Assembly: GCA_021834245.1 (NCBI GenBank) | Contig: JAKBDW010000439.1 | Location: 1-24,159 of the forward strand | Reading direction: 5' to 3' | From: Pseudomonadota bacterium | GTDB lineage: Bacteria; Pseudomonadota; Gammaproteobacteria; Acidiferrobacterales; UBA6901 | DNA length: 24,159 nucleotides | Shown here: positions 2,773 through 21,013 of the stretch, one piece after another | Numbering within the stretch: position 1 is the first letter of the stretch | Layout of the letters: each line of letters begins with the position of its first letter | Position numbers and translations under genes: made by a program | Notes under the pieces: generated by a model | Told to the model about the DNA's origin: nothing | Database searches by the model: none | What the model saw: only the letters and a program-made list of their open reading frames with translations

Positions 2773-3306
2773 ATGAATTGCTATTCGTTCAATGGAAAGA
2801 GACCGCACGTTGCCAGCGATGCATTTGTGCATCCAACAGCGGTTCTAATTGGGGCCGTCAATATCGGTAGAAAGTGTTATATCGGTCCATGTGCCTCGCT
2901 GCGCGGAGATTTTGGGTGTATCAGAATTGGTGCGGGCGCGAATGTTCAAGACAATTGCGTAATTCACACGTTTCCGAATGAGGACGTGGTGCTCGAAGAG
3001 GATGCTCATATCGGACATGCGGCTGTACTTCATGGATGCACCGTATGTTGCAATGCTTTGGTGGGTATACAATCCATCGTCATGGATGGAGCGCGTGTGG
3101 GCCGTGAAAGTATGGTTGGGGCGGGCTCGTTCGTGCCGGCGCGATTTGAGATTCCGCCGCGAACTCTCGTGATCGGAAATCCGTGCCGCATTGCTCGGCC
3201 GTTAAACGACGACGATATTCGTCGGAAGAGTCACGGCACGAGCTTATATCAAGAACTCGCACAACAGTGTCTCGCATCTTTACAGCCCTGTACGCCAACT
3301 CGGTGA
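2773..3306 (+). CDS. paaY: PaaY/CaiE-type gamma-carbonic-anhydrase-family hexapeptide-repeat protein
   Basis: FVHPTAVLIG, ASLRGDFG, QDNCVIH, HIGHAAVLHGC with three Zn-type His residues, and a C-terminal helix KSHGTSLYQEL as in PaaY. GGAGG RBS at 2762-2766. May be somewhat shorter at the C-terminus than E. coli PaaY. Confidence 0.85.
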   Translation: MNCYSFNGKRPHVASDAFVHPTAVLIGAVNIGRKCYIGPCASLRGDFGCIRIGAGANVQDNCVIHTFPNEDVVLEEDAHIGHAAVLHGCTVCCNALVGIQSIVMDGARVGRESMVGAGSFVPARFEIPPRTLVIGNPCRIARPLNDDDIRRKSHGTSLYQELAQQCLASLQPCTPTR

Positions 3307-3455
3307 CGAGTGGTCAGGCTGTAACAAGTACAAGTAATTGGAGAGAACAACTCTGGTTGCGTTGAATTTCGAGTGGTGAAGTTGGGCGAGCGCGCTCGGC
3401 TTCACCCCCTGACGCGCGTTGAACGTGACCTTCGAATTCAGAATCATTTCGCTCA

Positions 3456-4358
3456 GACCGCGCCGGAGGTTGGTATGCGCTGAAGGCGAAGAAGATACCC
3501 GGGCGACCGAGGAGGCTGTCGGGTCGGGACATGCAGCGGGTATATCGAACGGTGACGGGCAAGAATCCGCTGCAACTGGGGTTTCCGTTTGCGCTGTGGA
3601 CGCGCGGAATGGTTCAGAGCCTGATTCGCAAGCACCGCGGCGTGCGCCTGAGCTTAGTGTCGGCGGGGCGACTGCTGGCGCAGCTCGGACTCACCTGCCA
3701 GCAGCCGCTGTAGCGGGCCTTTCAACGGAACGGATCCCGGGTGCAGCAGTGGCCGAAGAGGAAGTATCCGCGAATCAGGGCACTGTCGAAGCGAGGGAAT
3801 ACGGAGATGTTCTTCGAAGACAGGTCCGGAGTTCGTTCGGACTCTCGCAGTGGCAGCACCTCGGTGGCGCGCGGTCAGACCCCAATCGTGCGGGTGACGG
3901 GCCAGCGCTTCAGCCTCAACATGATCTCGGCGATCAGCCCGCGGGGAGCGTTGCGCTTCATGGTGGTCAAGGGCGGAGTCGGTGCCCGGGTGTTCATCGA
4001 ATCCCTCAAGCGCCTGATGCACGGGCAACGACTGTCGGTGTTCCTGATCGTCGATGGTCATCCGGCGCATCGAGCCAAGATCGTCAACGCATTCGTCGAG
4101 AGCCTCGAAGCGAAACTGCGGCTGTACTTCCTGCCGCCGTGCTCCCCGGAGCTCAACCCCGATGAACTCGTCTGGAACAACGTGAACAACAATGCCGTCG
4201 GTCGCTCCAAGCTCGACGGGCCGAAGGACTTGCATCGTGCGGCGTCGGACGTCTACGCTTCCTGCAGAAGCGCTCGGACCGTGTCCGTAGCTTCTTCCAA
4301 TCCCCCGATACACGCTACGCAGCGCAAATATGAGTAAATACTTGCGAACTGGTTAGTA
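3456..4358 (+). mobile_element. IS630-family element, 5'-truncated transposase pseudogene with right end
   Basis: GGWYALKAKKIPGRPRRL...FALWTR...LGLTCQQPL*(3711)...FFEDRSG...LIVDGHPAH...FLPPCSPELNPDELVW. The right end ends in TA (GAACTGGTTAGTA, 4346-4358). Confidence 0.9.
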
Positions 4359-4379
4359 GTTGCAAGAGGTCGATGCAAC

Positions 4380-5243
4380 ATGGCTGCAAATGAGACGACG
4401 TCGGGCACCGCGCTGAGAGTTGAACATGTTGGTGCATTCATGTTGATTACGTTTAATCAGCCGGAGATGCACAATCCGCTCAGCCCCGAGGTGGTGAGTG
4501 CACTTGGGTCAGCACTTGCTGAGGCAGAGTCAGATGTGGCGCTACGCGCGATTGTGATACGCGGCGCGGGCTCCACGTTCAGCGCCGGGGGCAACCTGGA
4601 TAACTTCGAAGAGCGCATCGCCACGCCAATTAATGCCGACGGTAGCGATCCCGTTGTCATGAGCAACCGGATGTTTGGCGTCTTTCTTGAACGCTTGGCC
4701 AGATTTCCAAAACCCGTGGTGGTTGCGGCCCATGGCGCGGCTATGGGCGGGGGTGCCGGACTGGTATGCGCGGCCGACATCGCGCTCGTCTGCGCCGGGA
4801 CGCGATTTTGCTTTATCGAGACCAGAATTGGTCTTGTACCGGCACAAATCCTGCCGTTCGTTGTCGCAAGGATAGGTGCGCAGCGGGCGCGACGAATGAT
4901 GCTGACCGCAGAGCGGTTCGGTGCTGACGAAGCTCTGCGCATCGGGCTAGTGGACATCGTGGCAAATGACATGGAGGCGCTGCGTGCACAACTGGGCGAC
5001 GTGCTCGATCGCATTGGACTATGCGCACCGGATGCGCTCGCTCGGACCAAGCGGTTGGCGATGCGGTGCTTAGCGCCTGAATCCCTTTCTGGCACAGGGC
5101 TGACGGAGCTGCTCGATGATGCGGCGAATGACTTCGCCGCGCAGCTCCGGGGCGCTGGCAGCGAGGGCGTGCGGGCAGCGCGGGCAAGGCGTGATCCGGC
5201 GTGGCGCGTGGTGTTTGATCGCAGTGCGCTTGCGAGATGGTAG
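4380..5243 (+). CDS. Enoyl-CoA hydratase/isomerase (crotonase), methylglutaconyl-/isohexenylglutaconyl-CoA hydratase-like
   Basis: ITFNQPEMHNPLS, FSAGGNL, AAHGAAMGGGAGLVCAADI, FCFIETRIGLVPAQILPFVVARIG. Only the second catalytic Glu is present, as in LiuC/AtuE. Confidence 0.85.
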   Translation: MAANETTSGTALRVEHVGAFMLITFNQPEMHNPLSPEVVSALGSALAEAESDVALRAIVIRGAGSTFSAGGNLDNFEERIATPINADGSDPVVMSNRMFGVFLERLARFPKPVVVAAHGAAMGGGAGLVCAADIALVCAGTRFCFIETRIGLVPAQILPFVVARIGAQRARRMMLTAERFGADEALRIGLVDIVANDMEALRAQLGDVLDRIGLCAPDALARTKRLAMRCLAPESLSGTGLTELLDDAANDFAAQLRGAGSEGVRAARARRDPAWRVVFDRSALARW

Positions 5244-5342: not shown

Positions 5343-5672
5343 ATGACCCATGTGGTGACCGAAAATTGTATTAAGTGCAAGTTTACGGACTGCGTGATCG
5401 TCTGTCCGACTGATGCTTTCCGGGAGGGGCCGAATTGCCTAGTTATTCATCCAGACTGGTGCATCGACTGCACCCTCTGCGTTGCGGAATGCCCTGCGGA
5501 AGCGATCTTCTCGGACGAGAGCTTGCCAGACGCACAGCATGCCTTCATAGCGCTCAACGCAGAGTTGGCGGACATCTGGGGACCGATTACCGACAAGAAG
5601 GACGCTCCTACCGATGCGGACGATTGGAACGGGAAACCTGGCAAACTCGGGCTGTTGGAGCGTAAGTGGTAA
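5343..5672 (+). CDS. fdxA: 7Fe ferredoxin ([3Fe-4S][4Fe-4S], Azotobacter FdI type)
   Basis: [22 protein letters not shown]...[21 protein letters not shown]...LNAELA...W...GKLGLLER, matching the FdxA pattern. The last codons overlap an IS66-like end. Confidence 0.95.
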
Positions 5673-6086: not shown

Positions 6087-6100
6087 CACTCCACACGTAG

Positions 6101-6976
6101 TCACCGGTTACGTCGGGTCCTGCTAAGCAATTCGCGCGCCCTGTTCACAACCGGAGGATCGATCATCTTGCCCATGTATTCGGTGGCCCCTCTGCCTTCT
6201 CGAACCGCTTGGTCGAAAGCAGCAATGACGCCGTGCGCGTATTCGACCTCATGCGGTGTTGGCATGAACTCCTCGTTCAGGATATTTACCTGCGTTGGAT
6301 GAATGCAAAATGCACCGACAAAACCGAGTTGGCGCGCCAACCTGATTGCGATGCGAAGCGATTCCCCATCGGAATAGTCGGCGACTGATGCGGGAAATCC
6401 AAAGGGTAGAATTCCTGCACGGCGGCACGCGAACAGCACCTGCTGATTCGGCGCGAAGAGTGCCGCAGGAATCGGTTCCATGCCGGCTGACGCGGAAAAG
6501 TCTTCGGACCCGAGAATCATGCCCATCATCCGCGGCGAACTGGCGGCGATCTCGTCTAGTTTCGGCAGCGCCGCAACATCTTCAATCTGCGCAATCAAGA
6601 GCGTATGCCCTAAGCGGATGCCGAGCCGTGTTTCGATTAGATCTATTTTTTGCGATGTCGCACGTACGTAACCGGCATCATTCACCTTCGGCAACACAAT
6701 GGCATTCACGTCAGCGCCGACGGCTGCTTCAAGATCTCGTTCGGTCTCCAACCACGGCTGGTTGACGCGAACGACGATTGCGGCACCGGATTGCAAAACT
6801 TGTGCGGCGTCTGCCGCGATCCTGCTCCGCGCGACTTCCTTCGCAGCGGCGGGTACGCTGTCCTCCAAATCGAGAATATAGGCATCGGCGCCACGCGTAT
6901 GCGCCTTTGCAACGAACTTCTCGATATGTGCCGGTATAAACAGCATTGAGCGCCAGATCGGAAACGTTTTCAGCAT
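6101..6976 (-). CDS. CitE/HpcH-family acyl-CoA lyase (citramalyl-CoA lyase-like)
   Basis: WRSMLFIPA, ADAYILDLEDSV, VVRVN, IVLPKV, AQIEDV, LGSEDFSA, GAFCIHPTQV, GKMIDPPVV. AAGGA RBS. Confidence 0.9.
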   Translation of the reverse strand: MLKTFPIWRSMLFIPAHIEKFVAKAHTRGADAYILDLEDSVPAAAKEVARSRIAADAAQVLQSGAAIVVRVNQPWLETERDLEAAVGADVNAIVLPKVNDAGYVRATSQKIDLIETRLGIRLGHTLLIAQIEDVAALPKLDEIAASSPRMMGMILGSEDFSASAGMEPIPAALFAPNQQVLFACRRAGILPFGFPASVADYSDGESLRIAIRLARQLGFVGAFCIHPTQVNILNEEFMPTPHEVEYAHGVIAAFDQAVREGRGATEYMGKMIDPPVVNRARELLSRTRRNR

Positions 6977-6985
6977 ATTTATCCT

Positions 6986-7837
6986 TCAGCCCAAGTCGGC
7001 CGATGCCGTCATGGCGATGAATCCATCATGGTCAACCGCCCACAGATTCAGCTGCTCGCCGCGATGATTTCCGCACACCTTAAAAGGTGCGCAATCGAAG
7101 ATCGGCCTGATTGCGCGGAATCGGAACTTCTCAACTCGTCTGTGTGCAACCTGCACGCCAACCATGTCGAGCAAAAGCGTCGCCAAAAGCGGGCCGTGCA
7201 CCACGAGCGCTGGGTAGAATTCTTCCTTCACCGCATAGTCCCGGTCGTAGTGAATGCGATGACCGTTGTAGGTCAGTGCGGAAAAACGAAATAGTAGCAC
7301 CGAATCGGGAACGACAGTCTTCACCCAGTCAACGTCAGTCGGTGCGGGATCACCACGTGGTAACAACGTGGGGTCATTAGGCATGTCACGATAGATCAAA
7401 TTCTGTGTTTCAAGAATGCATAAATGATCGTTCTGGTATAGCGCGTGTTCGATGGTTATGACCACTAGCGCGCCAGTTTTGCCCTCCTTGAGTTCGATTG
7501 AACGAATGATGGATTTCCTGTGACCCGGACATCCGAGCACAAGCGGACGATCGATTTGCAGAGTGCCCGCGGCCCACATCCGGCGCGGAAGGGGCACGGG
7601 TGGCAGAAACCCGCCTTTTTTCGGGTGACCGTCGGCACCAGTACTGCTGGAAGAAGGTGTATCCAGGAAATACATCCAGTGCCAGGAAGGCGGCAAGGCA
7701 TCGCCTGTATCGGGGAGGACGTCATGATCGAGCACGGAGGCGAGCGCACGCGCGGGAAACAGGCCAAGATCGTCCGCGATCACTTTTTCGGTGCCGATCC
7801 AGCTCCTCAGATATTCAATATCAACCGTACTCATCAT
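6986..7837 (-). CDS. Itaconyl-CoA/mesaconyl-C4-CoA hydratase-like double hot-dog hydratase (Ich/Meh family)
   Basis: LPPSWHWMYF, GADGHPKKGGFLPPVPLPRRMWAAG, LLFRFSALTYNGHRIHYD, LVVHGPL. Start is ATG 7837 (alternatives GTG 7843, ATG 7834). Confidence 0.85.
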   Translation of the reverse strand: MMSTVDIEYLRSWIGTEKVIADDLGLFPARALASVLDHDVLPDTGDALPPSWHWMYFLDTPSSSSTGADGHPKKGGFLPPVPLPRRMWAAGTLQIDRPLVLGCPGHRKSIIRSIELKEGKTGALVVITIEHALYQNDHLCILETQNLIYRDMPNDPTLLPRGDPAPTDVDWVKTVVPDSVLLFRFSALTYNGHRIHYDRDYAVKEEFYPALVVHGPLLATLLLDMVGVQVAHRRVEKFRFRAIRPIFDCAPFKVCGNHRGEQLNLWAVDHDGFIAMTASADLG

Positions 7838-7870
7838 TGCCACTGCCTTCGCCGGTGGTCGGTCGCGTCA

Positions 7871-7995
7871 TACTAACAGGTTCATTTTAGAGACTATATT
7901 ATGATTGCGCGCGACGAGGGTCCACGGCCGCAAGTTCAGTAACGCGAAGCTGGAAGAGAATAGCTTTTCTGCGGTCAAGGCGGTGCAGTCGGGGG
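7871..7995 (+). mobile_element. IS630-family left end and transposase N-terminus (fragment)
   Basis: Begins TACTAACAGGTTC, an 11/13 match to the reverse complement of the right end at 4358 (TACTAACCAGTTC), then HGRKFSNAKLEENSFSAVKAVQSGE, like IS630 N-termini. Confidence 0.7.
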
Positions 7996-8631
7996 AGGTG
8001 GTTTGGGTCGAGCGCGACCTCGGGGTCCTCGAGGAACACCGAGAGTGCGTCCTTGCGCTCGCGCACGTAGCCGAGTGTTTTGTGAACGGTGTGGCCGGCA
8101 ACAGCCCGAGCTCGGCGAACGCAGCGTCAACGAATGCGAAGAGCGCCTCGACCTTCGGCTTCGTCTCGAGCACCCGTTGGTCACGCTTGGCCTCGCCTTG
8201 GAGCCCCGGCTCGCGGATCCGCTCCTCCACCGCGTAGATCTCGGCGATGTACTCGAGCACGATTCGGGCGCGTTCAGGATCGGCCGCCTCGGCCTCGAAC
8301 AGTTCGCGCCGCGCGTGAGCCCAGTTCCTATTCGATCCCAATTTTTCGGCCCAGGAAAAAACCAAGAGCTTCTGCTGCCTTCGGCATCAGACTGCACTGG
8401 GTCAGGAGCGATAGCAAAAGATCAAAGACGCAGACTTGACGAAGAACGCCTCGCAGGGTTCAATCAATCCGCAGATCTTTCCACTTAATCCCAGAACGAT
8501 TTCTGTCCGCACTTCCCAGGCCACCGCTCTGACCCCGCGTCTATGGAAGCAGCACTTCGTCACCAACCCCATGCGCTCCGAGATTCACGACTTCCCGGTT
8601 TAATCAATTACGCCGCGCGATTACCGCTTAC
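7995..8631 (-). mobile_element. IS66-family remnant: left end (8631) and internal tnpC fragment
   Basis: Minus strand starts GTAAGCGGTAATCGCGCGGCGTA; TnpC motifs WAHARRELFEA...IAEIYAVEERIR...TPFTK and (shifted frame) VFLEDPEVALDPNH. Confidence 0.8.
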
Positions 8632-9033
8632 GCTTCGTCGCTACTTTGTCGAGCTCAGACTTCTTGGGCTCGTGCATCATCGGCTACGGCTCCTCGCCTT
8701 CCCGATGCGGACCGACGATGCATCGCCGGTCAAGCCCAAGATCTCCCGGTTCCAGCGCAAGGAACATCCGCACATGCCAGGGTCTATGACCACGTCGGGT
8801 TATCCGAGCGCCCGCGTTAACGCGCCCGTCCGTGTTGCTTTCCATCTCACTGACAATGTCAGCACCCGAATCAGAAACTTTCGCGGCTCGATGCCTCGCC
8901 TGTACGTACCCCTGTCAACGCTTCGCATGCACCCTCGCGGGTGACCGCGCATGACTCGGGGCCGCCGTAGATTGCTAATCCTTCAACGTAGCGGACTTTC
9001 ACCGTCTATTCCTTGCCGGTTTCCCCGGCGCAC
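8632..9033 (-). mobile_element. Group II intron 5' remnant (domains I-III, class E-like), truncated by IS66
   Basis: 5' end GTGCGCCGG at 9033, followed by conserved blocks GGCCCCGAGTCATGCGCGG, GCGAAGCGTTGACAGGGG, GAGCCGCGAAA, GGAACCGGGAGATC, CGCATCGGGAAGGCGAGGAGCCGTAGCCGATGATGCACG and GAAGTCTGA...AGTAGC. Confidence 0.85.
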
Positions 9034-9099: not shown

Positions 9100-10266
9100 T
9101 CAGAATGATCTCGGTAGCTCAAGCACATGCTCAGCCACGTAAGAAAGAATCAAGTTAGTGGAAATTGGCGCGACTTGGTATAGCCGTGTCTCGCGGAATT
9201 TGCGCTCTATGTCGTATTCACACGCAAAGCCGAATCCGCCATGCGTTTGCAGACACACGTTTGCGGCTTCCCACGAAGCCTTCGCCGCCAAGTATTTCGC
9301 CATGTTGGCTTCCGCGCCACAAGGCTTATGCGCATCGTAAAGCTCGCAGGCTTTCCAGCGCATTAGATTGGCGGCTTCGAGCTCTATGTAGGTCTCCGCG
9401 ATCGGGAACTGCACGCCTTGATTTTTTCCAATTGGACGATCGAAGATAATGCGGTCATTAGCATATTTTGCAGCCCTGTCAATGAACCAGTAACCATCAC
9501 CGACACACTCGGCGGCGATGAGAGTACGCTCGGCGTTCAGGCCGTCGAGAATGTACATGAAACCGCGCCCTTCCTCGCCGATAAGGTTCTCCGCAGATAT
9601 TTCCAGGTTGTCGAAGAATAGTTCGTTGGTCTCGTGGTTAACCATGTTCGGGATGGGTCGTATCGTGAGCCCGTAATCGATGGCGTGACGGAGATCGACA
9701 AGAAAGACGGACATGCCATCCGATTTGCGTTTTACATCGGCGAGAGGCGTTGTGCGCGCCAAGAGGATCATCATGTCGGAATGTTGGATACGCGAGATCC
9801 AGATTTTCTGACCGTTGACGACGTAATTGTCCCCATTCCTGACAGCCGTCGTCTTTATGCGCGTAGTATCTGTACCGGCAGTGAGTTCCGTAACGCCCAT
9901 CGATTGCAGACGCAGCTCACCCGTGGCGATCTTCGGCAGATACAGACGTTTTTGCTTTTCGGAGCCGTGCCGCAAGAGCGTGCCCATGTTGTACATCTGG
10001 CCATGACATGCGCCAGAGTTGCCCCCGCAACGGTTGATCTCTTCCATAATCACTGAGGCCTCGGTGAGCCCAAGACCTGAACCGCCGTACTCCTGCGGTA
10101 TCAGAGCGGCGAGCCATCCCGCGCGCGTAAGTGCCTCCACGAAGGCCTCAGGGTAGGCGCGCGCTGTGTCCAATCGACGAAAATAGTCGTCAGGGAATTC
10201 GGCGCACAGGGCACGCACCCCGTCGCGGATGTCCTGGTATCGGTCGGGCGTGTTCACATTAGACAT
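9100..10266 (-). CDS. Acyl-CoA dehydrogenase, methylsuccinyl-CoA-dehydrogenase-like family found with itaconate-degradation genes
   Basis: NSGACHGQMYNM, LRLQSMGVTE, GQKIWISRIQHSD, LNAERTLIAAECVGD, RETRLYQVAPISTNLILSYVAEHVLELPRSF. Resembles, from recall, the ACAD of the P. aeruginosa ich-ict-ccl cluster. Confidence 0.85.
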   Translation of the reverse strand: MSNVNTPDRYQDIRDGVRALCAEFPDDYFRRLDTARAYPEAFVEALTRAGWLAALIPQEYGGSGLGLTEASVIMEEINRCGGNSGACHGQMYNMGTLLRHGSEKQKRLYLPKIATGELRLQSMGVTELTAGTDTTRIKTTAVRNGDNYVVNGQKIWISRIQHSDMMILLARTTPLADVKRKSDGMSVFLVDLRHAIDYGLTIRPIPNMVNHETNELFFDNLEISAENLIGEEGRGFMYILDGLNAERTLIAAECVGDGYWFIDRAAKYANDRIIFDRPIGKNQGVQFPIAETYIELEAANLMRWKACELYDAHKPCGAEANMAKYLAAKASWEAANVCLQTHGGFGFACEYDIERKFRETRLYQVAPISTNLILSYVAEHVLELPRSF

Positions 10267-10316: not shown

Positions 10317-11468
10317 TCAGGTCGGGAGACGAAGAACGTCTTTTGCGATGATGTTTCGCTGGATTTCATTGGTACCGCCATAGATGGGGGCAGGCCGAGC
10401 GTGATAGAAGTTGGTGAGAACATCAACGAATTCCAGGCCAAAGTCGATGTTGCCGACCATGGCCCCGGCTGGACCCGCTGCCTCCACCATCAAATCAGCG
10501 ACCCGGGAATAGGTTTCCGTAGCCCAAATCTTCAGCAACGAAACGTCTGAGCCGAGCGTTTCATCGCGTTTTACCATATCGACGAACCGCGCATATACCG
10601 ACGCGAGGTCCGCGACATCGAGTTGGAGCTTGGTAAATTTATCGAGAAACACGGGATCCCCAAGAAGCCCTTGCTGACGCGCCATCAACTCAAGCCGCCC
10701 CAAAGCGTATTGGGACTGTTTGGGACTCCCCAGAGTAATACGCTCGAAGCCCAGCATCGCCTTGGCAATCGGCCAGCCCTTGTTGATTTCCCCGACGATG
10801 TTTTCCTTTGGCACTCGCACATTGTCAAAGAACACTTCACAAAACTCTTCCTGTCCAGCGAGGTTTCGTATCGGTCGAACTGTCATGCCGGGTGAAGCAC
10901 AATCAATCAGAAGAAAGCTAATTCCCTCCTGCTTCTTGCGCGCCTGCGGATCCGTGCGAGCCAACAGGAATATGTGTGTCGCGTCCTGAGCCAGCGTTGT
11001 CCAGGTTTTTTGTCCATTGACGACAAAATGATCGCCATCGAATACCGCTGACGTCGTTAAACTGGCCAGGTCCGATCCGGCATTGGGTTCCGAGTAGCCT
11101 TGGCACCAGATGTGTTCACCCTTCAAAATCTTCGGCAGGTAATACGCCTTTTGTTCGTCCGTTCCATGTTTGATCAGAAGCGGACCCACCATGGTCATCC
11201 CCATGTCCGGGGTACGAGCCACGCCCCACTGCTCCTGCTCCTCTAGGAAAATGAGGAGCTTCGTCGGCGACAATCCCATACCCCCGAACTCAACCGGCCA
11301 CGTCGGAGCGAGCCAGCCTTTTTTCGAAAGGGCGAGATACCAATCCTTGATCTCGCCCCAGCGAAGTCGGTGCGTTGGATAGCGCAAGGCCGAAGGATAG
11401 CTCTGCTCAAAATAACGGTGCACCTCAGAACGAAAGTCTTCATCATCCATCGCATTCCAGTCGGTCAT
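10317..11468 (-). CDS. Acyl-CoA dehydrogenase, catalytic subunit of a PimC/FadE29-type heteromer
   Basis: IWCQGYSEPNAGSDLASL, NGQKTWTT, LGFER, IYGGTNEIQRNIIAK. Start MTDW at 11468 overlaps the upstream stop (ATGA), with a GGGAG RBS. Confidence 0.9.
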   Translation of the reverse strand: MTDWNAMDDEDFRSEVHRYFEQSYPSALRYPTHRLRWGEIKDWYLALSKKGWLAPTWPVEFGGMGLSPTKLLIFLEEQEQWGVARTPDMGMTMVGPLLIKHGTDEQKAYYLPKILKGEHIWCQGYSEPNAGSDLASLTTSAVFDGDHFVVNGQKTWTTLAQDATHIFLLARTDPQARKKQEGISFLLIDCASPGMTVRPIRNLAGQEEFCEVFFDNVRVPKENIVGEINKGWPIAKAMLGFERITLGSPKQSQYALGRLELMARQQGLLGDPVFLDKFTKLQLDVADLASVYARFVDMVKRDETLGSDVSLLKIWATETYSRVADLMVEAAGPAGAMVGNIDFGLEFVDVLTNFYHARPAPIYGGTNEIQRNIIAKDVLRLPT

Positions 11469-13093: not shown

Positions 13094-14023
13094 CTATCCC
13101 AATTCAGCCATCAGTTCCGGGATTGCCTGGAATAGGTCGGCCACCAATCCATAGTCCGCCACTTGAAAGATGGGCGCTTCCGGATCTTTGTTGATGGCCA
13201 CGATCACCTTGCTTTCCTTCATTCCCGCTAGATGCTGGATCGCGCCGGAAATACCGACCGCAATGTAAAGTTCAGGCGCGATTATCTTTCCCGTCTGCCC
13301 GACCTGATGGTCGTTTGAAATGTAACCTGCATCAACTGCGGCTCTGGAGGCACCGATCGCCGCATTGAGTTTGTCGGCTAGCGGTTCCAGCAACTTGAAA
13401 TTCTCGGTACTTCCCATGGCGCGTCCGCCGGAGACCACAATCCGCGCGGCGGTGAGTTCTGGTCGGCTCGACTTAAAGATCTGTCGGCTTATTAGTTGGG
13501 ATAGTCCGCTGTCGCCAGTAGCGGCGACGGGTTCAATGAACGCGTTTCCCGCACACCCAGCCGCATCAAAACTTGTAGTGCGCACCGTCACAACCTTGAT
13601 GGCATCGACAGACTGCACCGTAGCCATAGCTGCGCCAGCGTAGATGGGGCGCACAAACGTGTCAGGCGACTGCACCGAGACAATATCCGAAACCTGAGTC
13701 ACATCCAGGAGCGCCGCAACCCGCGGCAGGAAATCTCTGCCGAAGGCGGTTGCCGCCGCCACTAGGTGCGTATACCAATTCGCCAAGGAAACGACAAGGT
13801 TTGCGAGGTTTTCTGGCAGCGCGCTGGCGTATTCATCGGCGTCCGCCACGAGGACTTTGGCCACTCCCGTCACCTTAGCGGCTTGGTCGGCGACGCTCGA
13901 ACAGTTCTTACCCGCCACCAGGAGATGCACGTCAAGCGCCATCATCGCCGCCGCGGTCACCGCGTTCAGTGTTGCACTCTTGAGCACAGCATTATCGTGT
14001 TCCGCAATAACAAGGACTGCCAT
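13094..14023 (-). CDS. etfA: Electron transfer flavoprotein alpha subunit
   Basis: [58 protein letters not shown]. Confidence 0.97.
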
Positions 14024-14025
14024 AC

Positions 14026-14775
14026 TTAGATCACCTTAGCTTCGTTACGGAGTTTTTCTATAAGAATTTTCACGTTCGGCACCAATAGCCCGCCCTTACG
14101 TTGCGGCGGATCGGAAATCTTTAGTGTCTTAAGACGCGGGCTAAGATCGATACCGAGCGATGCCGCGCTAAGCATGTCCAACGGTTTCTTTTTGGCCCTC
14201 ATGATGTTTGGCAAAGTCGCATAGCGAGGCGTATTTAGGTGCAAGTCCGTCGTGATCACAGCTGGCAGTTTAAGCTTCACGATTTCCAATCCGCCGTCGA
14301 CTTGACGTGAAACTTGGACATTTGCGCCGTCGCAGGTGACTTTCGAAGCATACGTGCCTTGACCCCAGCCAAGCAGAGCCGCCAACATTTGGCCTGCTTG
14401 GCCAGCATCGTCGTCGATAGCCTGTTTGCCAAGAATTACCAACTGTGACGCTTCCTTCACCACCACTTCTTTGATCAGCTTCGCCACGTGGAACGACTGC
14501 AACACCATGTCTGTTTCGACTAGGACCGCCCGATCCGCCCCCAGGGCAAGTGCACTTCGTAATACGTCCTGCGAAGAGACAGCACCAATCGAGACGGCAA
14601 CGACCTCGTTCAACACACCTGCCTCTTTCATTCTTACTGCCTCCTCGACGGCTATCTCATCGAATGGATTCATCGACATCTTTGCGTTGGCCATATCGAT
14701 GCCCGTTTCGTCCGATCTAACTCTTACCTTAATGTTGTAATCCAGGACGCTCTTGACTGCGACCAACGCTTTCAT
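14026..14775 (-). CDS. etfB: Electron transfer flavoprotein beta subunit
   Basis: [53 protein letters not shown]. Confidence 0.97.
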
Positions 14776-14826: not shown

Positions 14827-15708
14827 TCAAACGGATTCCAAAGTCAGTTCTACGACTCCGTTGTTGAGCACCACGATATCTCGCGCGTCTACTCTTGCAC
14901 GTAGCCGAAGTTGGTTTTCACTCTCGCGCCATAGCTGGAAGCGCACTGTTTCGCCCGGCCACACTGGCGCGGTGAAGCGGAGCGCCATGCTTGAAAACCT
15001 CGACGCTTCGTACCGACAACATGTCTTCAACACTGCGTGCGCTGCCATGCCGAAAGTGCAGAGACCGTGGAGAATCGGCCGAGCGAACCCTGCAGCCCTT
15101 GCGACTACAGGGTCCACATGCAAAGTGTTGTAGTCACCGCTTAGACGGTAAATTAGAGCAGCCTGCTCCAGCGACGAAAGTTCTACCTCAATGTCCGCCG
15201 CACGCTCCGGGATTGGCGGCAACGGCTCTGGTCCTGGATCGCTGAGACCTTTCTGCTCACTGTATCCGCCGTCACCACGCAGAAACGTAACCATCCTGTT
15301 TCGTGCCAGCAGCTCTCGATCCATCTGATCCATGATCTCGCGCTCGATCACCACGATGGCTCCCTTACCAGGGCCTTTATCGGTGATCGACACAACCCGA
15401 TTCCGAGCAATGACCGTTTCCTCGACCGGCATCGGTTTGAATAAGCGGATATGCTGCTCGCCCTGCATTAACTTGACCCAGTTCGCGCCGGTCGCAGAGT
15501 CTTTCCACCAGAAACCCGGCGAACCGAGCACCGCCGCCATAGTTGGTACTGCCTGTAGATTTCTCTCGAATACGAAGCGTAGCTGCCCCTCGTCCAGCGG
15601 ATCCCCCCCCATACCAATGCCTAGCGCATAGATTATGGTGTCGCGCCAGCTATATTTTTGCACGATCTCGCCGAAGTCCCAGTTCTTAACGGCTTGATAG
15701 TTGAGCAT
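14827..15708 (-). CDS. R-specific enoyl-CoA hydratase 2 (MaoC/MFE-2-type double hot-dog)
   Basis: YSWRDTIIYALGIG, LMQGEQHIRLFKP, IYRLSGDYNTLHVDP (hydratase-2 motif with P->T), ILHGLCTFG, FTAPVWPGET. Confidence 0.9.
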   Translation of the reverse strand: MLNYQAVKNWDFGEIVQKYSWRDTIIYALGIGMGGDPLDEGQLRFVFERNLQAVPTMAAVLGSPGFWWKDSATGANWVKLMQGEQHIRLFKPMPVEETVIARNRVVSITDKGPGKGAIVVIEREIMDQMDRELLARNRMVTFLRGDGGYSEQKGLSDPGPEPLPPIPERAADIEVELSSLEQAALIYRLSGDYNTLHVDPVVARAAGFARPILHGLCTFGMAAHAVLKTCCRYEASRFSSMALRFTAPVWPGETVRFQLWRESENQLRLRARVDARDIVVLNNGVVELTLESV

Positions 15709-15948: not shown

Positions 15949-18126
15949 TTACTGCTCGTTGTCCCTTTTGAACCAGATTGCCTTATGTTGATCCATCTCG
16001 GCATAGCGGCCCGGCGGAACGGGAAGCGTAGTCATCGGATGCTCAATGATTGCCGGTCCATCTATTCTATTCCCTGGCTCCATCTTCTCCATATCCCAAA
16101 CGGTATTCTCCACCCAACGCCCGCCCCAATAAGCTGGCCTATGGCCTTTAATGGCAAACTTTGCGGGTTCCTTGCCCTCAAGCGGGTAGGAAACTAGCTT
16201 GGGTTGGATCTTGGGGACGACGGCCTCCAAATAAACACTAGTGATCAAGTAGCCTGCTTCGGGAAAGCGCGAGGCCGTTGGATAAATCCGTGTATATGTC
16301 TTTTCGAAAGAGTCACAGATCATCTGCACATCTTCGATGGTCTCGACCATGCCGTGTTCAACCGGCGCTTCCCAACTAGAGAAGAGCTGCCCCACATACC
16401 GGGCCGCGATACCGTACCTGAAGGTCACTTTATCCTTGGAGAATCCTTCCTGTTCCAGCTCCCGGTAAGCTTGCGCCTCGAGCACTCGCCATGCATCGTT
16501 CATCGGCTTGGTGATAGTCAATTTAACATCTGCTGACAACGAGGGCAGGATGGAACAGGTCAAACTTTTTTCATAGCGATGGTAGTATTCGGCCGCAGCA
16601 ATGCCGAAGGCAGAGAAAGCTGCCGCCCAGGGAACCGTGAACATTCCGCCTAGTTTAAGTCCTTGTTCAATACCCCATAGATGCAACGGACCGCTACCAC
16701 CATAGACAATCATCGTGAACTCGTGGGGATCCATGCCTCGCGACAACAAGGTGTCGTTAACGTGATCTTGCAGACCGGCATGCATCAAATCCAAAACACC
16801 GGCACATGCTTCGAAAACATCCATTCCTAACGGCTTTGCCAAACGCTCGGTCAACTCGTGTATGGCCTTCGCTCTGTTAAGTTTGACCTTCCCTCCAAGG
16901 AAGTTATCGGGATTCAGATAGCCAAGGGCAACGTTAATATCGCTCAGGGTGATTTCGTCGTAATTTAAACAGATCCCCAACTTGGAACCGGCACACTCAG
17001 GTCCCAAGATAACCCGCTTCGCCTCCCGGTCCACATGGATCGCCGTTCCCGTTCCGTTACCAATGGAATCGGTGGCGAGCATGGTCATATTCAATCTATG
17101 ACCGGCAAAATTAGGCTCCCGGTTTAGACTCTGCTGACCGCCTACGATCACGCCGGCCTCGAAGCTGGTGCCTCCGAGGTCGGTGCAAAGGAGATTCTTG
17201 ATCCCTTTCAGATCCGCCATTATCTTGCCGCCTAGCATCCCACCGGTGGGTCCCGAAACGATGCTTTCATACAGCCTCGGGTAACGAATGTTTGCCACTC
17301 CGCCAAAGGCCAGCAAAGTTTGCAAGTCGTGGACATAGCCATCGGCTTTCGCCGCATCTTCTACGTTCTTCAGTCTCGTTCTGGCACCGTCACAGGCAAA
17401 CCCCTCAACGAGGGTCGTCTTCATCCGCGCGCTCTCCTTAATGATCGGACAGATATCGCTGGACAAGATCACATTGATATTAGCTCCACGTTTCTTGATT
17501 ATTTCCCGGGCGATCTCGGCAGCTCGTCTCTCATGAACCGGATTTGCGTAAGAGCAGAGGAAACAGATCCCAATAACTTCCACCCCTGTGTCGACGAGTT
17601 TTTCGACGCCCTTGCGGACGTCGCTCTCATGCATAGGAATGATCACATGGCCCGCGTCATAGTGGCTGCAAGGGGGAAAATAGTTACCACCCGAGAGACG
17701 CTCAGTTATCTCTATGACATTCTTTCGGTCGATCATCGGCCGCGTATGCTCATGCAGCTGGAGCTTCCACTTCTCGGCTGGCGGCCGTCCCAGCCAGGTC
17801 AGAGCTCTTTCCAAGAAGGGTGTATCCCCTTGCCCTCGGGTTACGAGCAGGCCCACTCTCTTTCCGGCCCCTGTGATCAAGATATTAAGCATGATCGTCC
17901 CGGTATAGATGGAGGTGTCCGTATTCCTGTGAATATCACCGGACGTGAGTCCCAACTGGGCAGCGGCATCTGAAACAGAACCCATATAGCTAATGGCTTC
18001 ATTGCCGTAGTTGGTTAGATATTTCCCGAGGCTGAAATTTCCCTCCTTATCAACGAGGAAGGTATCCGTCATGGTTCCGCCGGCGTCTAGCGCGACGAGA
18101 TATCTCCTATTATCCAGCTGTGTCAT
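15949..18126 (-). CDS. Acetone-carboxylase beta-like subunit (hydantoinase A/oxoprolinase, ATP-binding)
   Basis: LDAGGTMTDTF, SGPTGG, TDLGGTSFE, DSIGNGTG, YGGSGPLH, GPAIIEHPMTT; 725 aa; ATGA overlap with the gamma gene. Confidence 0.9.
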   Translation of the reverse strand: MTQLDNRRYLVALDAGGTMTDTFLVDKEGNFSLGKYLTNYGNEAISYMGSVSDAAAQLGLTSGDIHRNTDTSIYTGTIMLNILITGAGKRVGLLVTRGQGDTPFLERALTWLGRPPAEKWKLQLHEHTRPMIDRKNVIEITERLSGGNYFPPCSHYDAGHVIIPMHESDVRKGVEKLVDTGVEVIGICFLCSYANPVHERRAAEIAREIIKKRGANINVILSSDICPIIKESARMKTTLVEGFACDGARTRLKNVEDAAKADGYVHDLQTLLAFGGVANIRYPRLYESIVSGPTGGMLGGKIMADLKGIKNLLCTDLGGTSFEAGVIVGGQQSLNREPNFAGHRLNMTMLATDSIGNGTGTAIHVDREAKRVILGPECAGSKLGICLNYDEITLSDINVALGYLNPDNFLGGKVKLNRAKAIHELTERLAKPLGMDVFEACAGVLDLMHAGLQDHVNDTLLSRGMDPHEFTMIVYGGSGPLHLWGIEQGLKLGGMFTVPWAAAFSAFGIAAAEYYHRYEKSLTCSILPSLSADVKLTITKPMNDAWRVLEAQAYRELEQEGFSKDKVTFRYGIAARYVGQLFSSWEAPVEHGMVETIEDVQMICDSFEKTYTRIYPTASRFPEAGYLITSVYLEAVVPKIQPKLVSYPLEGKEPAKFAIKGHRPAYWGGRWVENTVWDMEKMEPGNRIDGPAIIEHPMTTLPVPPGRYAEMDQHKAIWFKRDNEQ

Positions 18127-18692
18127 TTGTTTGCCTCCTTAGCCCACTTCCCTGTTTGGCTAGCGCTCAGGTCCTGGAACCAATCTTTGCTCGCGCTCTT
18201 GAGCGGCTTCTGTTCCCACTCATAGAGGGTGTCGATATCCGGTAGCACTTCAAACAGGAAGGGGTATCCAGAAGGCACCGCCTCCACCCCGAGTTGAGCC
18301 ATGCACCCCGGGCAGTAAAACTCCCTGACCTCGACAAAGGTCGGGTTCGGTTTGTTCGGGGTGGTAAAAATCTCGTCGAGCTCTTCGGTGGTGGTTCTGG
18401 CATACACTAAACTGCTCAACTTCCAGTTGACGCGATAGTCGCCGAACTCCTGGCCACAATCGCATTTGACAAAGCGCTCCTTGCCTTTCTCAACTACGTA
18501 CAGGTGCTCAGAGATGCGAACCAGTATGGTTTCTTTCCACTTGACCCGCTCTTGGAGGACTTTCAAATATTTCCAGAACCGATCCGTATCTTTGACAGGC
18601 ATGCGCAGCAAGGCATGGACCTCAGCCAAGGGGAGTTTCCCTTCAGACAGCAACTTCAGCTTGTTTTTTGTCACGAAGCTATTCTCAGTCAT
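18123..18692 (-). CDS. Acetone-carboxylase gamma-like subunit (Zn-binding)
   Basis: KDTDRFWKYLKVLQERVKWKETILVRISEHLYVV, CDCG, NWKL, REFYCPGC, VEAVPSGYP: the AcxC pattern with four Cys. Confidence 0.9.
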   Translation of the reverse strand: MTENSFVTKNKLKLLSEGKLPLAEVHALLRMPVKDTDRFWKYLKVLQERVKWKETILVRISEHLYVVEKGKERFVKCDCGQEFGDYRVNWKLSSLVYARTTTEELDEIFTTPNKPNPTFVEVREFYCPGCMAQLGVEAVPSGYPFLFEVLPDIDTLYEWEQKPLKSASKDWFQDLSASQTGKWAKEANK

Positions 18693-18784
18693 GTCTCACC
18701 TTTTCATTAAATTTGGGGCGTAAGGTATCGGCATCGTCACATTCGTACACTTGACGCGCCGAGCGCACCTGCTCCGGAGGAGCC

Positions 18785-21013
18785 TTAAATTTTGAAGTCT
18801 TCGCCTAACTGCCAGAACCCGTAGAACTCGCTGTGCCACTTTGGATATTGCAGCGTGTCCCTATACATCTCGGTCACATCCGGATGGGTAAACTGCCTAG
18901 CCAGTACCTTGGATCTTTCGCGAAGCCAAAACTCCTTGGCCGGTAGCGCTCTCGCCTTCCGTTTGTTGCGGATCTCTTGCCGCGCTTTCGCACTGGCTTC
19001 AATATCCACTTGGCAGTCTCCGTTGGCAGATAACTTCACAACCGCACCGTAGACCTTTCGGGCTGTCTCCGGAGACATCCAACTACGCTCCACGTCTTGT
19101 TTGATTAGATCAAGGTCTCGATCCAGCGGCTCACCCCAGGCACTGCTGGCCTGCAGACCCTGATAGACAAGATCTCCATGCTTGAGTTGGGTGGGTGGAG
19201 ACTCGTTGCCGTATAGCTCGACAGAACCCGCCTTCAGCGTGCCTTGTTCCATCATGCGGCAGGCTTCAACAAAATCCGTGGGCAGAGTTACTCCCTTGTC
19301 CAATAACTCAAAGGCATTGGTGTCGTGCAGGTACATCACCAAGCCGTTCAACATCGGGTAGCCGCCACATACGCCAACGGCGCAACCGAGCATGTCTGTT
19401 CCACTGATTCCCATTGTGTTCATCGTCAGGAACTGGCCAGGGTCACTGATCAAGTGCGCAGAGGACATCCCCATGCTCCCGCGGTGCTTGCCATGGGAAC
19501 ACATGTCCGGAATCATTTTCCGAGCCAGTGAAGTAAAGGCTGGTTCGACGAATTCCCATTCCTCGGCTTCGCCGAAATCGGCCTCCGGATTGCCGGCGCC
19601 CACCATGCAAGCTTCACCATCGCGCCAAGGCGAAGGCCCTCGTGGACAACTGCCGACGTAACCGAAATCCGTCATGCCCCAAGGAATGTCGTTTTTCAAG
19701 ACGCCACCCATGCCAAAAACGGAATACACGTATTCGCACAGATAGGATTCCTCAAGGAATCCCCTCATGAAGTATGACCAGCCGAAAACGTGGTTCGGCA
19801 ACAATGACAGCATGGTGCCAACGACGTTCGGAGCACACGTGCTTACATCCGTACGAGTAGGGTTGACGATGGATCCCGGTGACCCTTCCACATCCATCAT
19901 CTTCAAGAGGGAGGTGTTGACCAGTGGACTTTGTACGAGGACAGCCATCGAATGCCATCCCATGCCCAACAGAATTCCGCCTCGGTGTCCATTGGCCCAG
20001 AAGTAATCCTGGCTGGTGCTGCCATCGCACTCGACGTTTATAAAAGAAGAAGGAGTGATGGATATTTTCTCGTTCAGGTGAACGACCCAATCTCTATCCG
20101 CTTCACGGTACAAGTGGCCCATGATTCCCTTTTGACGTACCGGACGAAACAATGCCTGACGAAAATCACCGGGCACCATCTGCGTTCTGACGCGGCGCTC
20201 TATGGCCCTACGTTCCCGCTCCAGGATCTCCCTCATAGCCTGCTTAAAATAGCCCCGTCCAAACTCATCGACGAGTTCCATGACCCGTCCTCGGAGCATG
20301 ATGGCCCCGGTGAGCCGCATCTTTTCATCCAGGACATTGAGGGTGCCCGTCCTGGTGCGGCGCGTCCACATCCGCTCAAACCACTTGTACTCGATCAGGT
20401 CCTCGCCAATTTTCATGGGCCCGTAGGTGAACCCATCACAGTAGGTCGTAGGGGAGTGTGCGGGAACGCCCCCAGCACAGATGGAATGTCCTGTGTCGGC
20501 GATATGATTGACACCGGCAGCCCAAGCTACCAACTCGCCGTCGTAGAAGATTGGGACATATGTATAGCAGTCCGATTGATGGGGCCCGCCGGCCAAGGGA
20601 TCATTTGTCCCCCAGATATCGCCGTCTCTGAAGCCCGGATTCTCTTCCAGGCCGGTATCCGCCATATGTTTGACTATTAGCGGGAAGCTCATGACGTGCC
20701 CAGTGAGGCCAAAGGAAGACGCTACGACTTCCCCCTCAGGTAGGGCGAGCAAATGCAGAAGTTCACCCATTCCGACCCCTGCCGGGGAACCGGATACATG
20801 TTTGGACGTTTCTCGGGCGGCACTGACCGCCGCAATCAGCCTAGTCTGAAATTTGTCGAATTTAATGGGATCTTTTTCCAGCAACTCCAGATATTTCAGT
20901 CCAAATATGTGACCTGTATCTTTGTATTGTTGTTCAGCGTGATCAATTCTTTCCTTCAGCCTGATATCTTCGCCCTTGAGTGTTGTCCTAAGAATCTTTT
21001 GCGTTGAACCCAT
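18785..21013 (-). CDS. Acetone-carboxylase alpha-like subunit (hydantoinase B fold, metal-binding)
   Basis: ARETSKHVSGSP..GEL, NDP...PHQSD...VPIFYDGELVAWAAGVNHIADTG, NPEADFGEAEEWE, GKHRG, GGYP, WGEPLDRD, EFYGFWQL. GGAGG RBS at 21018-21022. Confidence 0.9.
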   Translation of the reverse strand: MGSTQKILRTTLKGEDIRLKERIDHAEQQYKDTGHIFGLKYLELLEKDPIKFDKFQTRLIAAVSAARETSKHVSGSPAGVGMGELLHLLALPEGEVVASSFGLTGHVMSFPLIVKHMADTGLEENPGFRDGDIWGTNDPLAGGPHQSDCYTYVPIFYDGELVAWAAGVNHIADTGHSICAGGVPAHSPTTYCDGFTYGPMKIGEDLIEYKWFERMWTRRTRTGTLNVLDEKMRLTGAIMLRGRVMELVDEFGRGYFKQAMREILERERRAIERRVRTQMVPGDFRQALFRPVRQKGIMGHLYREADRDWVVHLNEKISITPSSFINVECDGSTSQDYFWANGHRGGILLGMGWHSMAVLVQSPLVNTSLLKMMDVEGSPGSIVNPTRTDVSTCAPNVVGTMLSLLPNHVFGWSYFMRGFLEESYLCEYVYSVFGMGGVLKNDIPWGMTDFGYVGSCPRGPSPWRDGEACMVGAGNPEADFGEAEEWEFVEPAFTSLARKMIPDMCSHGKHRGSMGMSSAHLISDPGQFLTMNTMGISGTDMLGCAVGVCGGYPMLNGLVMYLHDTNAFELLDKGVTLPTDFVEACRMMEQGTLKAGSVELYGNESPPTQLKHGDLVYQGLQASSAWGEPLDRDLDLIKQDVERSWMSPETARKVYGAVVKLSANGDCQVDIEASAKARQEIRNKRKARALPAKEFWLRERSKVLARQFTHPDVTEMYRDTLQYPKWHSEFYGFWQLGEDFKI

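Follow-up and report, generated by a model that had tools for sequence, protein, structure and literature searches.

The window analyzed here is the whole of contig JAKBDW010000439.1 (24,159 nucleotides; hereafter C196), which was binned into a metagenome-assembled genome (MAG) of the gammaproteobacterial order Acidiferrobacterales and carries 14 catabolic genes, among them those of a three-subunit enzyme of the acetone carboxylase (Acx) type. On balance, we favor the reading that these genes are a horizontally acquired subset, compacted by insertion sequences (ISs), of a larger catabolic island in which a ketone carboxylase would feed the O2-free beta-oxidation of a methyl-branched ketone. 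A fuller version of this island (~45–60 kb, IS-free) is kept intact in Sterolibacterium-like MAGs of the Rhodocyclaceae. As for the substrate, the probable class is that of hydrophobic ketones with methyl branches, derived from an isoprenoid or a sterol side chain.

A candidate ketone carboxylase of a separate clade

Gene families in the window were placed by Pfam and NCBIfam scans, which bore out at the family level the gene inventory of the original prediction, a note made earlier from the sequence of the window. The carboxylase genes lie on the minus strand in the order alpha-gamma-beta, an order found in every clade member examined, and the stop of the gamma gene and the start of the beta gene share 4 nt. 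The alpha subunit (18785–21013; 742 aa, Hydantoinase_B (HydB) type, PF02538) has as its best solved relative the alpha subunit of acetone carboxylase (5M45_A/5SVB_A; E 1e-79, ~30% identity), the gamma subunit (18123–18692; 189 aa, PF08882 Acetone_carb_G) matches Acx gamma (5SVB_C; E 8e-31, ~37%), and the nucleotide-binding beta subunit (15949–18126; 725 aa, HydA type, with Hydant_A_N, Hydantoinase_A and Hydant_A_C domains) matches Acx beta (5M45_B; E 2e-146, ~40%), each over its full length. In the alpha subunit of Xanthobacter autotrophicus Acx, the Mn ligands are Glu89, His150, Asp153 and His175 (Mus et al., PMC5543143). Residues E84, H145, D148 and H170 of the window alpha subunit align with these four ligands and are invariant in 14 clade members that are 38–100% identical; likewise, the gamma subunit keeps the Cys4 metal motif, its C-x-C and C-P-x-C aligned with those of Acx gamma.

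None of the carboxylase subunits reaches the NCBIfam equivalog level, and the alpha clade is rare, with 42 clusters at E <= 1e-20 in a search of 5.8 billion proteins. Canonical Acx takes acetone and butanone only, and a survey of the family covers heterohexameric Acx, Apc and a new heterodecameric type (PMC13677872); the alpha-gamma-beta clade of the window has no counterpart in that survey. Literature searches found no published description of the clade, and the original prediction knew of no described pathway with this gene set. The window enzyme is a member of the acetone carboxylase family that belongs to a separate, apparently undescribed clade.

It is worth considering whether the alpha-gamma-beta enzyme might not be a carboxylase at all, being instead a different ATP-dependent enzyme from the hydantoinase/oxoprolinase superfamily, for instance one that hydrolyzes lactams or other rings or one that phosphorylates enols. 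The superfamily does include caprolactamase, N-methylhydantoinase and 5-oxoprolinase, all of which were detected as weaker matches. However, PF08882, the family of the gamma subunit, is found specifically in Acx and Apc and has been used as such for genome mining (PMC13677872), the Mn ligands are conserved, each of the three genes has a solved Acx subunit as its top match in the PDB, and 3-oxoacid activators and thiolases are adjacent, all of which makes a non-carboxylase highly improbable.

Carboxylase neighborhoods in other clades

Neighborhoods were compared in five to six separate carboxylase clades (35–86% identity). In a seawater sequence (L104, alpha 80% identical), one operon combines the carboxylase with two family III CoA-transferases (CoA_transf_3), an enoyl-CoA hydratase (ECH), an acyl-CoA dehydrogenase (ACAD) and a 434-aa protein, and it further contains two SCPx and two DUF35 genes, a thiolase, a short-chain dehydrogenase/reductase (SDR), two ACADs and a carboxyltransferase. 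The L106 carboxylase (alpha 44%) has an ACAD pair, DUF35, SCPx, ECH, a ligase and an ACAD upstream of it and an SDR, an AMP ligase and a thiolase directly downstream, whereas the neighbors in G248 (39%) are a thiolase, an ECH and an ACAD pair. Immediately upstream of the L123 carboxylase (37%) lie an ACAD, a DUF35 fusion, an SCPx thiolase (53% identical to that of the island described below) and a fused family I 3-oxoacid CoA-transferase, and several short metagenome contigs (35–46%) carry an SDR beside the carboxylase. L011 and L012 (~53%) have a different, conserved operon, in the order LacI, amino-acid permease, AMP ligase, MmgE/PrpD, the alpha-gamma-beta carboxylase, Zn-ADH and crotonase; the MmgE/PrpD neighbor hints at branched dicarboxylate chemistry in that clade.

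The recurring partners are a 3-oxoacid activator, a thiolase (often of the SCPx/DUF35 type, which serves for hindered substrates), ACADs and hydratases. Because these recur beside the carboxylase, they support a route from ketone to 3-oxoacid to 3-oxoacyl-CoA and thiolysis; the original prediction had proposed this same series of steps, with beta-oxidation to follow, and it fits the contexts seen across the five to six clades.

A fuller island in Sterolibacterium-like genomes

Orthologs of the carboxylase alpha subunit that are 85–86% identical were found only in three landfill/wastewater MAGs (L001–L003), labeled Sterolibacterium sp., Rhodocyclaceae bacterium and Proteobacteria bacterium. Orthologs of all 14 window catabolic genes (54–87%) lie in one region each of G104 (contig C8, ~27–71 kb) and G105 (contig C53, ~283–342 kb), with the same linkage seen in part in G103. 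Because all 14 fall within ~43 kb of a 3.6-Mb genome in the first and within ~59 kb of a 4.9-Mb genome in the second, the clustering is far beyond chance; in addition, no transposase family was matched among the annotated genes of these two regions. The original prediction had named, as one way to refute it, that the carboxylase and the downstream genes are never linked in other genomes. They are linked in G104 and G105 and partly in G103, and the island copy in the window is not a chance IS-assembled mosaic.

The carboxylase subunits are 81–87% identical to their island orthologs (with beta at 87% in G104/G105). The other minus-strand genes of the window follow the carboxylase. The two-domain (R)-specific enoyl-CoA hydratase, or hydratase 2 (14827–15708; MFE-2_hydrat-2_N and MaoC_dehydratas), has island orthologs of 71–73% identity that are its best matches genome-wide in G104 and G105. 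The electron transfer flavoprotein (ETF) beta and alpha genes (14026–14775 and 13094–14023; Pfam pair PF01012/PF00766) have orthologs of 68–72% in G104, where the order MaoC-ETFb-ETFa is kept, and of 63.5% in G105. Next come a PimD-like ACAD (11465–12619; small subunit, 61–65%), a PimC-like ACAD (10317–11468; large subunit, 78–81%), and a third ACAD of 388 aa, with three ACAD domains, that we call ACAD3 (9100–10266; 81% in G103/G104/G105). The run ends with an Ich/Htd2-like hot-dog hydratase of the itaconyl-/mesaconyl-C4-CoA hydratase family (6986–7843; match to PDB 8HUC/8KHG), whose orthologs (about 59–70%) lie beside CitE in G103/G104/G105 and are the best matches genome-wide in G104/G105, and with a CitE-like acyl-CoA C-C lyase (6101–6976; PF03328 HpcH_HpaI, with NCBIfam citE and RipC_Ccl below cut-off), whose orthologs (72–78%) directly follow Ich in three MAGs.

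Three plus-strand genes converge on this minus-strand run. The 7Fe ferredoxin FdxA (5343–5672) exceeds its model cut-off (NF045490, 149 versus 135 bits) and has island orthologs of 64–67%, divergent from the carboxylase in G104. The crotonase-family enoyl-CoA hydratase (4380–5243; ECH_1/ECH_2) has orthologs of 70–74% in G103/G104/G105, where they belong to an operon of the order ACAD-ECH-DUF35 fusion-SCPx thiolase-Ich-CitE. The original prediction had called it a LiuC/AtuE-type hydratase, which holds at the family level only, because it reaches 129 bits on the gamma-carboxygeranoyl-CoA hydratase (AtuE-type) model versus a cut-off of 426. Finally, the PaaY/CaiE/gamma-carbonic-anhydrase-like hexapeptide protein (2773–3306) falls below the cut-off of TIGR02287 PaaY (234 versus 320 bits), scores 153 bits on the gamma-carbonic anhydrase (gamma-CA) model, and has a 54% homolog in G105 only, 1 kb from the MaoC gene. 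Carbonic-anhydrase-type genes are found near the carboxylase more than once, as a beta-class Pro_CA in G105 (L006:18817–19428) and as the gamma-CA/PaaY-like genes of the window and G105, and such neighbors could supply it with bicarbonate.

The fuller islands hold considerably more. Specifically, they contain an operon that reads ACAD, crotonase, a possibly inactive HMG-CoA-synthase-like domain fused to DUF35, SCPx thiolase, Ich, CitE and SDR, as well as an IclR regulator, a PaaK-like ligase beside ACAD3, further thiolases and SDRs, and a DUF1302/DUF1329/BNR/MMPL set for the uptake of hydrophobic compounds. AtuC/AtuD/AtuF-like genes occur with AtuA in G104 and with an HMGL-like lyase, ScoAB and a crotonase in G105; an IVD-type ACAD and a Liu-like acyl-CoA carboxylase are also among these donor-type island genes. 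No oxygenase was found in the islands examined, and no glycyl-radical enzyme or steroid-ring gene was seen in the regions examined. The statement of the original prediction that no oxygenase is present held for the window, where no open reading frame (ORF) of >=90 aa matched an oxygenase family.

Two island proteins deserve separate mention. A conserved protein of ~434 aa without a Pfam match is encoded in both islands (L102:2652–3956, L103:2568–3872), and the carboxylase operon from seawater contains a 73% identical copy (L104:10001–11308); the window's MAG yielded no homolog. The second, of 494 aa, fuses an HMG-CoA-synthase-like/thiolase fold to a DUF35 zinc-ribbon/OB domain (L102:7296–8780, L109:2192–3676 and, on contig C389 of the window's bin, L111:1388–2920, minus strand), is 71% identical between the Sterolibacterium-like and Paraburkholderia versions, and always precedes an SCPx-type thiolase. 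What we take to be the active-site Cys position of its HMGCS motif reads Ser/Gln/Arg, and the protein may be a non-catalytic scaffold.

In light of these gene sets, a more conventional explanation should be weighed: that the enzyme is an ordinary acetone/butanone carboxylase variant salvaging acetone from acetoacetate in leucine (Liu) catabolism, and that the remaining genes are a generic branched-chain beta-oxidation set that happens to lie nearby. Such a role would suit donor-type islands that combine a Liu-like acyl-CoA carboxylase, an IVD-type ACAD, an HMGL-like lyase and ScoAB, it would account for the fully conserved Mn site, and PMC13677872 cites the formation of acetone during the catabolism of leucine. 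Nevertheless, the identity to acetone carboxylases is only ~30–40% and the gene order is different, and in most clades no acetoacetate-specific partner is adjacent. Furthermore, the partners that recur are PimCD-like ACAD pairs and SCPx/DUF35 thiolases, as is typical for acyl-CoAs that are bulky or branched, and the L106 carboxylase has a ligase and a thiolase of its own after it, in a cluster of the long-chain type. We consider acetone salvage quite unlikely.

The window is a reduced derivative of the island

At least six transposable-element remnants and one group II intron fragment split the catabolic genes of the window into four blocks, a fragmentation that the original prediction had not described. 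The ends of the region are marked by IS256/IS1111 and IS21: on one side, an IS256-type (Transposase_mut) frame at 1–2608 is interrupted by an IS110/IS1111-type element at 553–1646. Between the PaaY-like gene and the crotonase lies an IS630-family element (3419–4337, plus strand; DDE_3, 102 bits, in the ORF 3741–4337), the upstream part of which is in a different frame, and a 248-aa "gap" ORF belongs to this IS630-type element. The 1256 bp that separate ACAD3 from the Ich-like gene contain an IS66 transposase fragment (7868–8365, minus strand; partial match to PF03050) and the group II intron fragment, which covers D1–D4 (8780–8999, minus strand; matched over its full length by the Rfam model RF02005 with 174 bits). 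The latter is a truncated remnant, with neither a D5/D6 element nor an ORF for a reverse transcriptase found nearby. The promoter side of the carboxylase is abutted by an IS4-like element (21131–22337, plus strand; DUF4372 at 21131–21457 and DDE_Tnp_1 at 21498–22337).

No remnants of island genes were found in the non-coding stretches of the window, including 7868–8999 and the IS630 stretch, and a promoter and terminator scan of the window gave counts at the shuffle level. The window is a reduced, IS-compacted and rearranged derivative of the larger catabolic island, and it offers a view of such an island being trimmed by IS elements after transfer between proteobacterial classes.

Host and genes on other contigs

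C196 is the longest contig of a 601-contig bin that is 80% complete with 5.4% contamination, and its GC content and tetranucleotide pattern fit that bin. The RpoB of the bin is at most 74% identical to anything named, with uncultured Gammaproteobacteria as its best matches, and the bin encodes the respiratory nitrate reductase NarG and heme-copper oxidases. A homolog of the carboxylase alpha subunit was found in none of 18 members of the window's own family and in none of 102 of its order, and a sample of 300 other Rhodocyclaceae genomes yielded one distant (39%) homolog only. Because the enzymes are 60–90% identical to those of the islands, as compared with ~70% for RpoB across the classes, horizontal acquisition is the most likely origin of the window island; otherwise, the contig would have been assigned to the wrong bin.

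The Pfam and NCBIfam scans found no thiolase, CoA ligase, SDR or regulator in the window, and the original prediction had expected such functions to be encoded elsewhere. They were sought by tblastn of the island proteins against the whole bin, and thiolase, CoA ligase, SDR-type dehydrogenase and regulator genes all came to light. Contig C58 encodes a PaaK-like CoA ligase (84–85% identical to the island protein), a thiolase (78–82%) and an SDR (79–80%), and C389 encodes the DUF35-fusion scaffold (81%) and an SCPx thiolase (90%). An IclR regulator (65–67%) and a crotonase (89–90%) adjoin an IS5 on C483, and C601 carries an SDR (78%), a crotonase (64%) and a TetR regulator. An Atu/Liu-type acyl-CoA carboxylase, AtuA, an HMGL-like lyase, ScoAB, the uptake genes, the operon-leading ACAD388 and ETF-QO were not found in the 80%-complete bin; because the bin is incomplete, their non-detection is no proof of absence.

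Acyl-CoA dehydrogenases and the Ich-CitE pair

With ortholog-supported starts, the PimD-like and PimC-like genes overlap by 4 nt in an ATGA stop/start, and a catalytic Glu at the IVD-type base position is found in the PimC-like large subunit and in ACAD3 but not in the PimD-like small subunit. These coupled genes with one catalytic base between them are predicted to encode a heteromeric ACAD of the PimCD/ChsE type. The scores fall below the curated cut-offs of the NCBIfam models pimC_large and pimD_small (283 versus 624 bits for PimC and 180 versus 653 for PimD), as well as that of IpdE2 (139 versus 450). Orthologs of the pair (61–81%) lie beside the carboxylase in G104/G105, and similar pairs do so in L106 and G248.

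The original prediction had grouped ACAD3 with the next two genes as an ACAD-Ich-Ccl triad for methylsuccinyl-, mesaconyl- and citramalyl-CoA. In the islands, ACAD3 adjoins the PaaK-like CoA ligase and the DUF1302 uptake genes and lies 8–20 kb from Ich-CitE. Because the junction in the window consists of mobile-element debris (IS66 and intron) and ACAD3 stands apart from Ich-CitE in the islands, the adjacency is secondary and the triad is not ancestral. ACAD3 matches the solved methylsuccinyl-CoA dehydrogenase (Mcd) 6ES9 with 151 bits, ranked after many generic ACADs, and 8CIW is absent from the listed matches.

The Ich-CitE pair itself is adjacent in three MAGs. The Ich-like protein aligns with the itaconyl-CoA hydratase PaIch of P. 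aeruginosa (8HUC/8KHG) at E 1e-59 over residues 14–260, and its homologs belong to PF27832 Htd2, with source names of the kind "mesaconyl-C4-CoA / 3-methylfumaryl-CoA hydratase". The CitE-like protein matches malyl-CoA lyase, CitE, RipC, CLYBL and PaCcl in the PDB with 80–117 bits, among which PaCcl (81 bits) and RipC (93 bits) score about equal to or below malyl-CoA lyase and CitE; its score on the RipC_Ccl model is 135 versus a cut-off of 375, and by these scores it is a distinct branch of the CitE family. In Paraburkholderia (L109), orthologs of Ich and CitE (58% and 63%) directly follow a DUF35-fusion/SCPx thiolase pair (71%) and are themselves followed by a homolog of (2S)-methylsuccinyl-CoA dehydrogenase (788 bits to 8CIW) and then CoA_transf_3. 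The carboxylase is not present at that locus, and because the orthologs there occur without it, Ich-CitE is a separable module. The Ich ortholog of Georgfuchsia is an isolated gene, and G105 has a second Ich paralog, which lies outside any itaconate cluster.

Gonner et al. 2025 (PMC12290011) have characterized the Mcd/Ich/Ccl module biochemically, and Ich-CitE plausibly performs mesaconyl/citramalyl-CoA (C5-dicarboxyl-CoA) chemistry. The second half of the original prediction is thereby kept in part: the homology and the Paraburkholderia context speak for a mesaconyl/citramalyl module, whereas the adjacency to a methylsuccinyl-CoA dehydrogenase does not hold, that of ACAD3 being secondary. Linkage of the carboxylase to Ich-CitE is seen in one island lineage, and Ich-CitE is absent beside the carboxylase in L104, L106, L123 and G248. 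Because the triad is not ancestral, the linkage occurs in one lineage only and Ich-CitE is separable, a single linear route to methylsuccinyl-CoA would be inferred rather than read from the gene order.

In its strictest form, such a route would begin with the carboxylation of a keto-acid that has a methyl branch, such as a methyl-levulinate, into an acid of the 4-methyl-3-oxoadipate type; thiolysis would then give methylsuccinyl-CoA, from which ACAD3, Ich and CitE would produce pyruvate and acetyl-CoA. The Ich-like and CitE-like homology agrees with this, and because the Paraburkholderia pair adjoins the methylsuccinyl-CoA dehydrogenase homolog directly after the DUF35-fusion/SCPx pair, it is plausible that a thiolase releases methylsuccinyl-CoA. 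In addition, an MmgE/PrpD gene, of a family that includes methylsuccinate isomerase (Gonner et al., PMC12290011), lies immediately upstream of the ~53%-identity carboxylase, and both the carboxylase and the Ich-CitE module were kept in the reduced copy. Against the strict scheme are the secondary nature of the ACAD3-Ich adjacency, the ligase and uptake genes that are the neighbors of ACAD3 in the islands, and its distance from the solved Mcd. The window also contains no ORF matching CoA_transf_3 or CoA_trans, and hence no family III (Ict-type) CoA-transferase, a small polar keto-acid fits the uptake set and the Atu genes poorly, and four other clades have no Ich-CitE in the vicinity of the carboxylase. 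We regard the strict linear pathway as unlikely.

A different division of labor can be imagined, in which the Ich-like and CitE-like enzymes cut a 3-methyl-2-enoyl-CoA into acetyl-CoA and a methyl ketone, which the carboxylase would then re-carboxylate. The former branch methyl would become C2 of the new 3-oxoacid and the chain would re-enter beta-oxidation without oxygen, so that the beta-methyl branch would be bypassed independently of biotin. This would be the alkyl analogue of the conversion of mesaconyl-C4-CoA through citramalyl-CoA to acetyl-CoA and pyruvate, pyruvate being itself a methyl ketone. The reduced set of the MAG keeps the hydratase, lyase, carboxylase, ligase, thiolase and ACADs that it would need while an Atu/Liu-type carboxyltransferase was not found in it, and isoprenoid-type genes are present in the parent islands. 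On the other hand, in known substrates of the CitE family the carbinol carbon bears a carboxylate, the gene accompanying the Paraburkholderia orthologs encodes a homolog of methylsuccinyl-CoA dehydrogenase, and the bypass would by our estimate cost ~4 ATP equivalents per branch versus 1 for the Atu route, which the donor-type islands also have; moreover, the bin is only 80% complete. Such a bypass seems to us very doubtful.

Proposed route, substrate and significance

In the route that we favor, O2-free beta-oxidation fed by a ketone carboxylase, the beta subunit would phosphorylate ketone and bicarbonate at the expense of ATP, by analogy with acetone carboxylase, and the Mn site of the alpha subunit would join the two phosphorylated species into a 3-oxoacid. 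As the conserved neighborhoods suggest, this acid would be activated by the PaaK-like CoA ligase on C58, in place of which relatives would use family I or family III CoA-transferases, and would be cleaved by the standard thiolase (C58) or by the SCPx-type thiolase with its DUF35 scaffold (C389). The PimCD-like heteromeric ACAD, ACAD3, ETF, hydratase 2 and the crotonases would then oxidize the released acyl-CoA. In a second module, the Ich-like hydratase may convert a mesaconyl-/itaconyl-type C5-dicarboxyl-CoA stub to a tertiary 3-hydroxy-3-methyl intermediate, which the CitE-like lyase may split into acetyl-CoA and a 2-oxo or keto product. No step would require O2, and the host bin encodes a respiratory nitrate reductase.

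Because the fuller islands contain Atu/Liu genes and a hydrophobe-uptake set, the substrate is probably branched and isoprenoid- or sterol-like. Of the substrates offered by the original prediction, the isoprenoid-like ketones are favored by these genes, whereas a small polar keto-acid such as methyl-levulinate fits them poorly. A steroid 2,3-seco ring-A methyl ketone was also considered and set low, the carboxylase clade being missing from almost all sampled Rhodocyclaceae.

Several points weigh against this overall interpretation. The alpha subunit is only ~30% identical to characterized enzymes, in a superfamily that includes ATP-dependent lactamases and hydantoinases (these without a gamma subunit). 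The link between Ich-CitE and the carboxylase is confined to one island lineage (three related MAGs and the window), with Ich-CitE lacking the carboxylase in Paraburkholderia and the carboxylase lacking Ich-CitE in L104, L106, L123 and G248. The window is a subset without the Atu/Liu carboxylase, ScoAB, uptake genes or ETF-QO, and it may be decaying rather than functional. Finally, the host assignment has composition as its sole basis, in a bin that is 5.4% contaminated; the IS copies of the window recur on none of the other contigs of the bin, and therefore these lend no extra support to the bin membership of C196.

The carboxylation of isoprenoid- or sterol-derived ketones has been proposed from metabolite work, and to our knowledge no genes are known for it. 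Here, a rare and separate clade with conserved catalytic residues is associated, across several lineages, with genes for CoA activation, for special thiolases and for heteromeric ACADs. If the proposed route is true, it would widen the range of ATP-dependent carboxylation to ketones that are larger or branched and would provide a genetic handle on the O2-independent breakdown of isoprenoid- or sterol-derived ketones. A longer-chain variant of acetone carboxylase was itself reported only in October 2026 (PMC13677872).

Comparison with known systems

It is informative to set the window beside the systems that it most resembles. AcxABC of Xanthobacter autotrophicus and Aromatoleum aromaticum (5SVB, 5M45) has the same three subunit families, with full-length alignments, the Mn ligands and the gamma Cys4 motif in common, and the activation and thiolysis of a 3-oxoacid after carboxylation would also be shared. 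The differences lie in sequence (~30/40/37% identity for alpha/beta/gamma), in the lack of an AcxR-type regulator in the window, and in the embedding of the window clade within clusters of ACAD, ETF, hydratase and SCPx-thiolase genes. The gene order of acxABC is beta-alpha-gamma, whereas that of the window is alpha-gamma-beta. Apc and the heterodecameric acetone carboxylase Acr of Rhodococcus (PDB 5L9W; PMC13677872) are of the same superfamily, but they have a duplicated HydA-type subunit and an epsilon subunit, neither of which is in the window, and the alpha subunit matches Apc much more weakly than Acx (139 versus 272 bits). Nonetheless, Acr accepts longer aliphatic ketones, and Apc operons include a benzoylacetate-CoA ligase, the same logic of a ligase acting after a carboxylase as is proposed here (PMC13677872).

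The pseudomonad ich-mcd-mmgE-ict-ccl cluster (PMC12290011) shares with the window a PaIch homolog, followed by a lyase of the CitE family, and an ACAD nearby. The window differs from it in being without Ict and MmgE/PrpD, in a CitE-like protein that is distant from PaCcl and in an ACAD adjacency that is secondary, and in the parent islands the pair ends an ACAD-ECH-DUF35 fusion-SCPx operon. As for the Atu/Liu pathways, AtuA, C, D and F are not in the window and were not found in the 80%-complete MAG, but the parent islands contain AtuC/AtuD/AtuF-like genes, AtuA, an HMGL-like lyase and crotonases, and the best named matches of the window crotonase belong to this group of hydratases. Finally, although no match to Bbs-type, steroid side-chain or PimCD enzymes reaches the equivalog level, the coupled heteromeric ACAD pair, hydratase 2, the SCPx thiolase with its DUF35 scaffold (on C389 and in the islands) and the pairs of family III CoA-transferases (in L104) are all features held in common with Bbs-type and steroid side-chain beta-oxidation.

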